A stretch of DNA of 4,350 bases from the IMG/VR virus record IMGVR_UViG_2778261594_000008, one strand, 5' to 3'. Every line of letters begins with the position of its first letter. Within the stretch, counting starts at the first letter, position 1. Position numbers and translations under genes: made by a program. Below are positions 2,025 through 4,213 of this stretch, piece after piece. Below the pieces are notes generated by a model that was not told the origin of the DNA, ran no database searches, and worked only from the letters and a program-made list of their open reading frames with translations. The stretch comes from a virus (Duplodnaviria; Heunggongvirae; Uroviricota; Caudoviricetes).

Positions 2025-2228
2025 TCAGGCTGGTGGGCAATTACCTTGCTTGTTGGGGCCGTATTGTGCTGCCATTTTCATCCGTTCAGAACGTGAATAT
2101 TTTTTTAGAAACTCATCAAGGACAAAAGCGCATGGAGCGAATCTTTCTGATTCATGCTCGAGCGCCATATTTTCGTGCTCTCTGTTCGTTTTTTGCGATG
2201 GTGTATTGGTTGATTCTTTGTTGGTCAT
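2025..2228 (-). CDS. Small hypothetical protein P1 (67 aa), paralog of P2; unknown function
   Basis: ORF with ATG start. Shares with P2 the N-terminal MTN and a C-terminal motif R[FL][AV]P..F.L[DE][DE]F..KY.R. Preceded by the conserved 44-nt element and followed by the terminator. The overlapping plus-strand ORFs look like antisense artefacts. Confidence 0.6.
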   Translation of the reverse strand: MTNKESTNTPSQKTNREHENMALEHESERFAPCAFVLDEFLKKYSRSERMKMAAQYGPNKQGNCPPA

Positions 2229-2236
2229 TGTGTGTA

Positions 2237-2280
2237 CCTGTAAAGCAATGCGCCGGAGTTCCTCACGCCACGGCGCTGAT
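2237..2280 (-). repeat. Copy 1 of the conserved 44-nt intercistronic element (plus strand CCTGTAAAGCAATGCGCCGGAGTTCCTCACGCCACGGCGCTGAT)
   Basis: 41/44 identical to copy 2 at 2922-2965. As minus-strand RNA it has a 6-bp stem GCGCCG/CGGCGC with a 15-nt loop, then UUGCUUUACAGG leading into the P1 start. Confidence 0.85.
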
Positions 2281-2285
2281 GTTTT

Positions 2286-2465
2286 TTATTCTTTGGGTTC
2301 AATACCGCGTTGCTGTAATTCTTTTCGGATTATTCGTTTTATCCAAGCTGCTAAAGAGTCATCACCGTCTTGTTGTTGTGCTTTTTCCATCTTTTCCCGT
2401 AAGTCAGGATCTAAACGGAACTGGAAAGGAGGATTACCACGCCTTTCATTTTTGTGTGTTGACAC
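2286..2465 (-). CDS. Putative ribbon-helix-helix protein RHH-2 (59 aa, GTG start), paralog of RHH-1; may be degenerate
   Basis: Found by manual translation; not in the supplied ORF track. Sequence VSTHKNERRGNPPFQFRLDPDLREKMEKAQQQDGDDSLAAWIKRIIRKELQQRGIEPKE shows an RHH pattern (beta strand FQFRLDP, helix A, loop, helix B). Same length as RHH-1 and offset by exactly 685 bp. The only in-frame ATG (2390) would give a 34-aa fragment. The GTG overlaps the -35 of the opposing promoter. Confidence 0.4.
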   Translation of the reverse strand: MSTHKNERRGNPPFQFRLDPDLREKMEKAQQQDGDDSLAAWIKRIIRKELQQRGIEPKE

Positions 2466-2486
2466 GTCAATTACACTCCATATAAT
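2459..2486 (+). promoter_or_regulatory. Consensus sigma70-like promoter TTGACA-N16-TATAAT, rightward
   Basis: TTGACA at 2459-2464 and TATAAT at 2481-2486, both perfect hexamers with a 16-bp spacer. Homologous in position to the weaker rightward promoter of module 2 (TTGACG 3212-3217). Confidence 0.45.
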
Positions 2487-2494
2487 GTGTTTAT

Positions 2495-2506
2495 GTGTAT
2501 ATACAC
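2495..2506. promoter_or_regulatory. Perfect 12-bp palindrome GTGTATATACAC over the predicted transcription start; candidate operator
   Basis: Self-complementary. Flanked by GTGT (2487-2490) and ACACAC (2510-2515), giving an imperfect palindrome of about 30 bp. Half-site GTGT(A/T) resembles the module-2 operators. Confidence 0.4.
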
Positions 2507-2532
2507 ATTACACACAACTAGCACAAAAAACA

Positions 2533-2566
2533 ACGCCCCGCAGTGATGGGAACACATACGGGGCGT
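2533..2566 (+). other. GC-rich leader hairpin (module 1 copy): stem ACGCCCCG/CGGGGCGT, 18-nt loop, followed by TCTAACCAA
   Basis: Direct inverted repeat. Homologous to the 3281-3313 hairpin, including one compensatory pair change (C-G to A-T). No U-tract, so not a terminator. Confidence 0.5.
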
Positions 2567-2685
2567 CTAACCAAACCATTAATTGAGGTAACGATTATGG
2601 CTATAAAAGAGCATAGCTTACTCTTTATACACACACAAACGCCCCGGAAACGGAATAATCCGTTTCATAGTTCGGTTTTGTGCAC

Positions 2686-2913
2686 TCATCCTGGCGGTCG
2701 GTTTTTGCCGGATTTAAGCCGCCGTGGGTATTTATCGACAAAATCTTCAAGGGCAAATTTTTCTGGTGGCACTAAGCGCGGCGCTGGTGGTGGTATTTTT
2801 GTTCTGGTTAGTTCTTCCTCAAGTCTGGCGCAGGCTTCTGACTGCCTTTGCCGGATGATTTCATCATCTTGCGTTTGCGTGTCTTGTATTGGTGATAGTG
2901 TGTTGTTGGTCAT
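2686..2913 (-). CDS. Small hypothetical protein P2 (75 aa), paralog of P1; unknown function
   Basis: ORF with ATG start. AGGG RBS-like motif 8 nt upstream inside the end of the conserved element. Shares N-terminal MTN and the C-terminal F.LEDF.DKY.RR motif with P1. Confidence 0.65.
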   Translation of the reverse strand: MTNNTLSPIQDTQTQDDEIIRQRQSEACARLEEELTRTKIPPPAPRLVPPEKFALEDFVDKYPRRLKSGKNRPPG

Positions 2914-2921
2914 GATACTGC

Positions 2922-2965
2922 CCTGTAAAGCAATGCGCCGTAGTACCTCACACCACGGCGCTGAT
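2922..2965 (-). repeat. Copy 2 of the conserved 44-nt intercistronic element
   Basis: CCTGTAAAGCAATGCGCCGTAGTACCTCACACCACGGCGCTGAT. Differs from copy 1 at three positions, all in the predicted loop. Confidence 0.85.
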
Positions 2966-2970
2966 AGTGA

Positions 2971-3150
2971 TTATTCTGATTCTTTGGCCTTGCGACGCTG
3001 GCGGTATTCAACTTCCCGCTTTAATGCAGTTGTAACAAACTGCCCTGTACTTTCGCCGGGCATTTTTACCGCCTCAACATTGTTCATAACTTCATGTGGA
3101 ACCCTTGCCGCAACTGTTTGTGATTTTGCGTTTACTGCTTTTGTCGCCAT
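2971..3150 (-). CDS. Ribbon-helix-helix (Arc/MetJ/CopG-like) DNA-binding protein RHH-1, 59 aa
   Basis: MATKAVNAKSQTVAARVPHEVMNNVEAVKMPGESTGQFVTTALKREVEYRQRRKAKESE fits strand / helix A / G-x-S-T loop / helix B. ATG at 3150 has RBS GAGGGG 8 nt upstream. The track start at 3159 (GTG) would overlap that RBS, so the ATG is preferred. Confidence 0.7.
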   Translation of the reverse strand: MATKAVNAKSQTVAARVPHEVMNNVEAVKMPGESTGQFVTTALKREVEYRQRRKAKESE

Positions 3151-3198
3151 GTTGAGCACCCCTCATAAAAAACAAATGCAGTATGCAGGAAAAAAAAC

Positions 3199-3253
3199 AA
3201 GTGTTCAACACTTGACGTGTTTAACACCTCGATTTAAATTGGTGTTCAACACC
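3199..3253. promoter_or_regulatory. Divergent promoter region with three 11-bp palindromic operator-like sites GTGTT(C/T)AACAC
   Basis: Sites at 3201-3211, 3217-3227 and 3242-3252. Rightward promoter candidate TTGACG (3212-3217), 17-bp spacer, TAAATT (3235-3240). Leftward candidate TTGAAC (3208-3203 on minus), 17-bp spacer, CATACT (3185-3180). The operators overlap both. Confidence 0.5.
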
Positions 3254-3283
3254 TTATTTAGGCAAGGTGTAGAAACGACGAAA

Positions 3284-3310
3284 CCCCGCACTGTAGGAGC
3301 AGTAACGGGG
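3284..3310 (+). other. Leader hairpin (module 2 copy) in the 5' UTR of ORF A: CCCCG ... CGGGG with inner ACUG/CAGU stem, followed by TCTAACCAA
   Basis: Inverted repeat read directly; homologous to 2533-2566. Confidence 0.5.
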
Positions 3311-3342
3311 CTTCTAACCAACAACGTAAACGAGGAGCCGTT

Positions 3343-3537
3343 ATGGTTGCCGTAAATCATATACCACACCTTGTACACACACAAACGGCCTTTGTGTGGC
3401 GTTTTCTGGCACTGAGTGCCGGAGAATCTCAAATCATCCACGTAACCGCCTGGACGGAACGCGAAGCGCGTAACCTTTGCCCGTCCGGTTGTGTTGCTGT
3501 ATTTGCCGCCCGTATTCGCCAGGGGGTAGGCTTATGA
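3343..3537 (+). CDS. Small protein A (64 aa), possibly Icd-like (host cell division inhibitor-like) family
   Basis: RBS GAGGAG at 3332-3337, 5 nt before the ATG. Stop overlaps the start of ORF B (ATGA). The motif FVWRFLAL...WTEREAR...FAARIRQ recalls Icd-like small proteins of P4-like prophages; this is from memory and needs an HMM search. Confidence 0.6.
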   Translation: MVAVNHIPHLVHTQTAFVWRFLALSAGESQIIHVTAWTEREARNLCPSGCVAVFAARIRQGVGL

Positions 3538-3993: not shown

Positions 3994-4213
3994 AATCCCT
4001 TTTGAAGTATTAATCCACTCTGAAAACGCATTAATTAAAGCGCGCGAAATGAATGCGTTGTTAATTAAATTAATTGAAGTGCCGGAAGGTGGTAAGGAAT
4101 CAGGTGCCTTAATGTTTGCAGCCATTCAGACATTACTATCGCCTGTTATTGATGAACTGGATAAGGCAATGGCAATTCACGAAAATAATAACGCGCCCCA
4201 CACCGGAGAATAA
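3986..4213 (+). CDS. Small hypothetical protein D (75 aa)
   Basis: ATG at 3986 with RBS AGAGGG 6 nt upstream. Overlaps the ORF C stop by 8 nt. Possibly related to B and C (shared ESGA-type motif between helices). Confidence 0.55.
   Translation: MNKIPFEVLIHSENALIKAREMNALLIKLIEVPEGGKESGALMFAAIQTLLSPVIDELDKAMAIHENNNAPHTGE

Follow-up and report, generated by a model that had tools for sequence, protein, structure and literature searches.

A conserved intercistronic spacer with a stem-loop between two small, reassorting genes of Escherichia coli phage satellites

The 4,350-nucleotide (nt) stretch of DNA considered here (the window; IMG/VR record IMGVR_UViG_2778261594_000008, Caudoviricetes) is the left end, or regulatory zone, of a satellite that resembles the phage-inducible chromosomal islands (PICIs). 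Its minus strand carries two tandem modules, each with a gene for a ribbon-helix-helix (RHH) regulator followed by a gene for a small protein, P. The two genes are separated by a non-coding spacer with a 44-nt core that is nearly the same in both modules, although the genes on either side, judged from their sequences, are barely alignable. The element is very common in E. coli. A search of the literature found no paper that describes this spacer; the element is undescribed, though it is not of a new kind. The preferred interpretation, which is put forward tentatively, is that of an intercistronic hairpin derived from a terminator and joined to the ribosome-binding site (RBS) of P. In the sense RNA, such a hairpin would work as a leaky terminator, a protective structure or both, and the element would double as a linker for recombination.

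Anatomy and distribution of the spacer

The spacer extends from the RHH stop codon to the ATG of P. It is 57 nt long in all variants and related loci, and the cores align without gaps. In the window, copy 1 lies at 2229–2285, between RHH1 and P1, and copy 2 at 2914–2970, between RHH2 and P2, both on the minus strand. Their 44-nt cores (2237–2280 and 2922–2965) are identical at 41 positions and differ at three, exactly as a sequence-only reading of the window had reported, and the chance expectation of such a match is 0.00 in 200 dinucleotide-preserving shuffles. A repeat finder extends the pair to a block of 75 nt with 81% identity, at 2218–2292 in module 1 and 2903–2977 in module 2 (repeat family D1). 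This block, which is also apparent in the conservation profile, comprises the final RHH codons, the spacer and the first four codons of P, whose start is ATGACCAACAA. The genes themselves are far more diverged, as had also been noticed: BLASTP yields no alignment between RHH1 and RHH2, while P1 and P2 share 25% identity across 69 columns, 41% of which are gaps.

Read along the minus-strand RNA, the RHH stop codon is followed by 9 nt, the stem-loop, 10 nt (AUUGCUUUA), the tetranucleotide CAGG, 8 hypervariable nt and the ATG. The stem-loop of copy 1 (2250–2276) has a 6-bp lower stem, GCGCCG/CGGCGC, and an interrupted upper stem, and scores 55.0 bits with a covariance model of the element. That of copy 2 (2935–2961) has a stem of 11 bp (GCGCCGUGGUG / UACUACGGCGC) closed by the loop UGAGG and followed by AUUGCUUUAC, and scores 57.6 bits. 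CAGG, located 8 nt ahead of the ATG at 2237–2240 and 2922–2925, is invariant in 56 representative loci (columns 41–44 of the core). Based on its position and the conservation profile, it is probably the Shine-Dalgarno sequence of P1 and P2.

Of 5426 complete E. coli genomes, 1687 (about 31%) match a query of 81 nt centred on the copy 1 region, at 2768 places in total and at most seven per genome; almost all of these places are chromosomal. A phage origin, or mimicry of a phage sequence, finds no match among 50,697 phage records. With each bacterial species represented by a single genome, a pattern scan gave 25 chance hits and, apart from these, only Shigella flexneri. The P family has the same narrow range, being limited to E. 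coli, Shigella and E. albertii. When loci are retrieved independently of the spacer, through a motif of the P protein, the spacer is present in all but one, and the exception is a chance hit of the motif. The presence of two spacer copies is not peculiar to the window, since it is also seen in eight of the 56 loci from a first scan of viral contigs. A further arrangement occurs in locus L153, in which an extra copy of the hairpin sits after the P gene, ahead of a P2-like gene.

Structure, variation and reassortment

The sequence-only reading had drawn the GCGCCG/CGGCGC stem beneath a 15-nt loop containing GAGGAA and had placed the three differences between the copies within this loop. The lower stem is confirmed, but in copy 2 the supposed loop pairs on to give the 11-bp stem. 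The three differences are all positioned in the upper stem, where they constitute the three mismatches of copy 1, and GAGGAA is found in copy 1 only, copy 2 having GAGGTA. The predicted fold of copy 2 has an energy of −19.3 kcal/mol on the sense strand versus −13.6 kcal/mol on the antisense strand (z = −3.0); the corresponding values for copy 1 are −13.7 and −13.4 kcal/mol.

Variation was followed in 184 copies, which represent 31 distinct 44-nt cores, and conservation per column was taken from 56 non-redundant representatives. The sense hairpin is more stable than the antisense hairpin in 28 of the 31 distinct variants (mean energies of −15.0 versus −11.2 kcal/mol). A G-U pair between columns 12 and 24, which becomes a C-A mismatch on the opposite strand or in the DNA palindrome, is also retained in 28 of the 31. 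Both measures tie the structure specifically to the strand that is transcribed. In the L058 type, which is abundant in O157:H7, pairing is held through G-U and U-G pairs while the symmetry of the DNA decays. The most divergent copy, L101, has U-A in place of C-G and G-C in place of G-U, so that pairing is kept, and in L013 and L039 all three changes in the 3′ arm preserve pairing and produce a stem of 9 bp. Double changes occur at three pairs of the stem in the alignment of variants.

Comparison with known RNA families and short motifs gives no assignment. Rfam 15, including the C4/IsrK immunity RNAs of P1/P4-like elements, has no match at the element, with E ≤ 1 for the whole window and E ≤ 10 at 2480–3360. 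Inspection by eye showed that CsrA-type GGA motifs and loop sequences resembling a Shine-Dalgarno sequence are inconsistent across variants and unconvincing, and that the element matches neither the E. coli Chi sequence nor the consensus of repetitive extragenic palindromic sequences.

Conservation forms an island that, in positions relative to the core, reaches from about −36, in the RHH tail codons (...RRQRRKAKESE), to about +60, in the first codons of P. Inside this island it is punctate. AYCA-GCGCCGUG, GGCGCA, ACAGG and the ATG show little or no variation, the upper stem and loop are of intermediate conservation, and the 8 nt separating CAGG from the ATG are as variable as unalignable sequence. 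The flanks are of a different character. The 184 copies include 20 clusters of RHH bodies and nine clusters of P bodies, which are joined in 50 combinations, and 15 of the RHH clusters are each paired with at least two P clusters. Within the core itself, all four gametes are found at 67 of 300 site pairs, and the three polymorphisms of the window are present in nearly every combination among other loci. Since RHH and P reassort and four-gamete violations lie inside the core, the element is a crossover zone. It has what characterizes a recombination linker at a module boundary, namely a conserved segment between diverged, reassorting flanks. Gene conversion, which had been offered as an alternative to selection in the sequence-only reading, receives some support from the same observations.

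The conservation of the spacer is not exceptional when compared with the rest of the satellite. Median identity between islands is 85–91% for the spacer, 86% for int, 93% for alpA and 94% for icd. The proposal of a non-coding segment better conserved than the genes beside it therefore holds against RHH and P but is overstated as a general statement, since other alignable backbone is equally similar. The spacer is present in about 150 of 174 loci, a set retrieved through the element itself or the P motif, while any given RHH or P allele is present in 14–74. The unusual parts are RHH and P, which are hypervariable, reassorting cassettes, rather than the spacer. Because its identity is like that of the backbone and the alleles are patchy, the contrast is due mostly to such exchanged cassettes lying beside a universal linker, and it is for this reason that the element seems far more conserved than the genes.

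Terminator descent and competing explanations

The stem-loop has the GC-rich character of an intrinsic terminator, with 6–11 bp, of which 6–7 are GC pairs, and it begins 9 nt past the RHH stop codon. A terminator scan flags copy 2 as terminator-like (12 pairs, seven of them GC) but does not flag copy 1. In the major variants the tail AUUGCUUUAC has five U in eight positions, which is a broken U-tract. Satellites of Salmonella, Klebsiella, Serratia, Pectobacterium, Proteus and Xenorhabdus have homologs of the YlcI/YnfO type of RHH at the same site, with alpA on one side and the replication operon on the other; in the loci examined from these other genera, both the spacer and P are missing behind the RHH gene. 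Klebsiella, Xenorhabdus and Serratia have a canonical terminator with a U-tract no more than about 15 nt past the RHH stop codon, while Salmonella has a terminator-like hairpin about 55 nt downstream of it. The RHH tail codons of Salmonella are nearly identical to those of one E. coli type, and homology stops at the stop codon.

In being placed close behind the stop codon of a gene of the same family, the hairpin of Escherichia is similar to the RHH terminators of Klebsiella, Xenorhabdus and Serratia. It differs from them in that theirs have clear U-tracts and terminate the transcription unit, while in Escherichia the U-tract is broken at best and P comes next. The two share no sequence similarity, and a covariance model built from the E. 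coli hairpins has no match in the RHH loci of the other genera. Descent from a terminator is proposed because satellites of other genera have an ordinary terminator at or near the same position and lack P. The stem-loop would then have originated as the transcription terminator of the RHH gene itself. The element now sits in a two-gene operon consisting of an Arc-like RHH regulator (YlcI/YnfO) and the small P, within the variable regulatory zone of the satellite, where the stem-loop might act as a leaky terminator, as a hairpin that protects the 3′ end of the RNA, or as both. The RHH message would stay abundant and stable, while expression of P would be limited and separately initiated, so that the two would be uncoupled; operon tuning of this kind is known. 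RHH and P cassettes would be swapped between satellites through homologous recombination in the conserved linker.

Classic examples of intercistronic stem-loops with protective or attenuating roles are those of papBA and malEFG. Protective RNA structures are known to shape differential decay within E. coli operons (Dar and Sorek 2018, PMC5927463). The element shares with them a GC-rich hairpin immediately after the upstream cistron, a downstream cistron with its own RBS and conservation of the hairpin among relatives. It differs in being part of a mobile satellite rather than a housekeeping operon, in having a conserved primary sequence as well, and in doubling as a recombination junction; it is also known here from sequence alone. 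The anatomy, distribution, reassortment, strand asymmetry and equivalence in position to terminators are observed, while an attenuating or stabilizing activity of the hairpin and a Shine-Dalgarno role of CAGG are inferred.

Several observations weigh against the preferred interpretation. Covariation analysis does recover some double changes and retained pairing, but its score is not above that of shuffled alignments: 88.0% of cells are paired versus 86.6% after shuffling, the score is reached in 198 of 500 shuffles, and the covariation term of RNAalifold is just −0.11. A separate count of substitution events, each taken once, has about 11 of 25 that leave pairing intact, which is near the neutral expectation under transition bias. 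Common variants, copy 1 included, have one to three mismatches in the upper stem, and mismatches in the lower stem are uncompensated in L059, L063 and the TCGCCG variant. Fold prediction, which bears out the 11-bp stem of copy 2, gives a z score of only −1.0 for copy 1. The U-tract is missing in the L058 type (ACAGGGUUACAGG; ACAGGGUUAC) and in the copies of L013 and L153; since the U-rich tail is imperfect or missing in some variants, termination cannot be a universal function. In addition, the narrow taxonomic range entails a shallow divergence, which is too little to settle structure-specific selection. The inverted repeat does exist, with a preference for the sense RNA, while the case for selection on the structure is modest and not proven. 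Nucleotide-level selection, as suggested in the sequence-only reading, has some support in the near-invariance of the lower stem, AYCA, GCGCA and CAGG, but of the specific mechanisms it listed (a processing site, attenuator, translational operator or protein-binding RNA) none is demonstrated.

The main rival explanation, possible but somewhat doubtful, dispenses with any function of the hairpin. The element would be a pure recombination linker, a homologous patch that co-resident satellites keep uniform through frequent homologous recombination or gene conversion, with the RBS of P as its only function and the inverted repeat as the relic of an old terminator. Lambdoid phages have conserved boundary or linker sequences between exchangeable modules, as described by the theory of modular evolution. 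The element is like these linkers in being a short conserved segment with non-homologous or highly diverged flanking alleles in many combinations. It is unlike them in that it belongs to satellites, lies at the junction between two very small genes and holds a structured element and an RBS. The presence of up to seven copies in one genome, the 50 pairings of RHH and P clusters with four gametes inside the core, the free mixing of the window polymorphisms, a spacer identity no higher than that of other backbone segments and a covariation no better than shuffles are all as this explanation would have them. Conversion acting tract by tract does not by itself predict conservation that is punctate at a scale of 5–10 nt. 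Nor does the explanation account for the preference for the sense strand in 28 of 31 variants, for the constant length of the spacer and its constant 9-nt distance from the stop codon to the stem, or for a hairpin that is kept, with pair-preserving changes, before an unrelated gene (L013/L039).

It is unlikely that the element is an operator for a protein, in which the hairpin RNA or the inverted repeat in DNA would be bound by a protein of the satellite or its helper phage that controls P expression or satellite induction. Candidates for such a protein are RHH, through its arginine-rich tail (KRRQRRKAK), the many P variants with an arginine-rich N-terminus, and AlpA; in its RNA version the interaction would be like that of lambda N with boxB. 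Much of the loop and the unpaired flanks, AYCA ahead of the stem and GCGCA at its 3′ base, are conserved in sequence, the RHH tail codons are inside the conserved block, and the apical loop of copy 2 has 5 nt. Like the boxB of lambda nut, then, some variants have a small hairpin with a 5-nt loop, and arginine-rich stretches are encoded on either side in many. These stretches are not universal, however, and P1, P2 and the RHH1 tail of the window are without them, while the loop changes from UGAGG to CGGUG, UAAGG or UGAGU with no matching protein change evident. Besides these inconsistencies, a boxA is lacking, and nothing points to antitermination. As for a site in DNA, the palindrome decays to 5+2 bp in the L058 type, where RNA pairing persists by G-U, and the operator-like palindromes of the module are located elsewhere (3198–3253). 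The further claim that the hairpin is either a dedicated RNA operator, recognized in the manner of N and boxB by the RHH tail or the P N-terminus, or a recoding signal that fuses RHH to P, is judged quite improbable.

A coding or recoding role on its own is very improbable. It would require either a small overlapping ORF (open reading frame), QRRGVR..GALLYR, with its TGA overlapping the ATG of P, or read-through stimulated by the hairpin to yield an RHH-19 aa-P fusion. The spacer is exactly 19 codons in the frame of P and free of stops in both window copies and most variants, but about 40% of random 19-codon stretches would be open anyway, and several variants, abundant ones among them, are interrupted in frame 0 by TAG or TGA. 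The hairpin does start 9 nt past the stop codon, yet this stop is mostly UAA, the least leaky one. The ATGA overlap that ends the +1 frame in many variants is gone where P begins with ATGG (L065), and the small ORF has no plausible start codon backed by a Shine-Dalgarno sequence. Between the window and the L058 type, the codon changes are all non-synonymous in the +1 frame and mostly so in frame 0. Both the +1-frame ORF and the read-through were rejected on account of these changes and the in-frame stops.

Control by an antisense RNA, like sar of the P22 immI region (arc-ant), can hardly be the explanation either: RHH1 matches Arc-like repressors, the order of a small RHH gene, a short intercistronic region and a second gene whose expression should be limited is that of arc-ant, and the plus-strand hairpin of copy 1 is followed by TGATGTTTTTTATTCTTT, but the plus-strand RNA, which would start near the P start, cover the P RBS and terminate at the hairpin, has no predicted promoter near 2200–2245 or 2885–2930 (the best by eye, TTGTTG-17-TAAAGC, fits at merely six of 12 positions), the plus-strand T-run is restricted to RHH1-type tails, the hairpin is weaker on the antisense strand in 28 of 31 variants, and P is neither Ant-like nor related to Ant. 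Promoter prediction gives none in or beside the spacer on either strand, which counts against a moron-type promoter for P as well as against a sar-like RNA.

Genomic setting and significance

The island is inserted in tqsA. The integrase gene (1–1218) and alpA (1593–1781) are followed by the two tandem RHH-P modules on the minus strand. Beyond the modules, and divergent from them, the plus strand has an Icd-like gene and small ORFs, and further downstream are DUF4222, a DUF927 primase, SSB, the major capsid protein, a decoration protein and TerS. The published scheme for Gram-negative PICIs (PMC10111431) has a "dynamic zone" with the integrase/AlpA zone on one side and the replication zone on the other, and it is in this dynamic zone that the RHH-P modules sit.

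RHH1 (2286–2465, minus strand) is a 59-aa Arc-like ribbon-helix-helix protein that matches the PHROG Arc-like repressor with E = 1.5e-6, has a weak match to YlcI/YnfO and is hypothetical in RefSeq. RHH2 (2971–3159, minus strand) belongs to the YlcI/YnfO family (NCBIfam NF041551, E = 1.6e-16), and in RefSeq it starts at the ATG at 3150. P1 (67 aa, 2025–2228, minus strand) falls in phrog_21027, of unknown function, and sequence comparison indicates that P2 (75 aa, 2686–2913, minus strand) is a divergent member of the same family. The AlphaFold model of P1 has two helices and is of low confidence, with a predicted local distance difference test (pLDDT) score of 62.6, which is insufficient for a fold search. 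P has no functional match in Pfam, NCBIfam or PHROG (PADLOC was not searched) and hence no assignment to a toxin family, as the second protein of a type II toxin-antitoxin operon would have; RHH also lacks a P partner in other genera. In L013 (hairpin at 4031–4065, minus strand) and L039 (5422–5456), the RHH gene and a diverged hairpin are followed not by P but by a small lipoprotein-like ORF (MLKLKKHVPMMVALIITIFLLISC...) that has a strong Shine-Dalgarno sequence, AGGAG. Accessory genes of different kinds can therefore follow the hairpin.

The modules have other distinctive features. Downstream of P1, a minus-strand hairpin at 1915–1955 (GGCGGC...GCCGC followed by T7), which faces the end of the convergent alpA, is likely to be the terminator of the RHH1-P1 transcript. 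On the plus strand, the two modules have another non-coding piece in common, at 2534–2575 and 3284–3322, which consists of a hairpin, CCCCGCA...ACGGGGC, followed by TCTAACCAA. These hairpins form the leaders of a truncated Icd-like ORF (from 2597) and of the Icd-like ORF at 3343–3537, and their fold z scores are −3.9 and −2.0. They lie where P1/P4-like elements have their C4/CI-type immunity RNAs, but they have no Rfam match. Module 1 ends in the truncated Icd-like ORF (2597–2685, MAIKEHSLLFIHTQTPRKRNNPFHS*), which abuts the 3′ end of P2. With its two modules, the layout looks as if an entire immunity module of another satellite had been inserted here or joined on by recombination.

A perfect sigma-70 consensus promoter (2459–2486, plus strand; TTGACA-16-TATAAT, 12 of 12 positions) overlaps the start of RHH1. 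Transcription from it would cross the truncated Icd-like ORF towards the right and continue antisense to P2, spacer 2 and RHH2, so that module 1 could interfere with the expression of module 2. Between RHH2 and the Icd-like gene, at 3198–3253, the palindrome GTGTT(C/T)AACAC occurs three times, and these palindromes are probably operators of divergent promoters; one of them, with a run of T8, is terminator-like on the minus strand. The intergenic region between int and alpA has clustered direct repeats of the type ACAA(C/T)GTG(A/C)AACAA, at 1263–1303 and 1513–1560, which may be arm-type sites for Int or binding sites for AlpA. Antisense to the RHH-P modules, the plus strand also has cysteine- and serine-rich open frames of 250 and 270 aa (1834–2586 and 2543–3355). 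As genes these were judged to be probably spurious, and PGAP calls the O157:H7 equivalent (L199) a pseudo "Icd-like protein".

The regulatory zone of Gram-negative phage satellites is poorly understood, and the element marks within it a very common, undescribed operon of an Arc-like RHH regulator and P, which about 31% of complete E. coli genomes carry, often more than once. As a fixed landmark, it could be used to find and type the modules, to study how immunity or repressor alleles are shuffled among satellites, and to test how a satellite sets the ratio of its repressor to a downstream accessory gene. If the hairpin were a specific RNA operator, it would be a control point common to otherwise hetero-immune satellites; as an RNA operator or a recoding signal, it would be a single RNA switch that gates an accessory gene in about one third of E. 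coli genomes, whatever the RHH allele. At present it is best regarded as a cis-element of an ordinary kind, an intercistronic hairpin with an RBS, in an interesting location.

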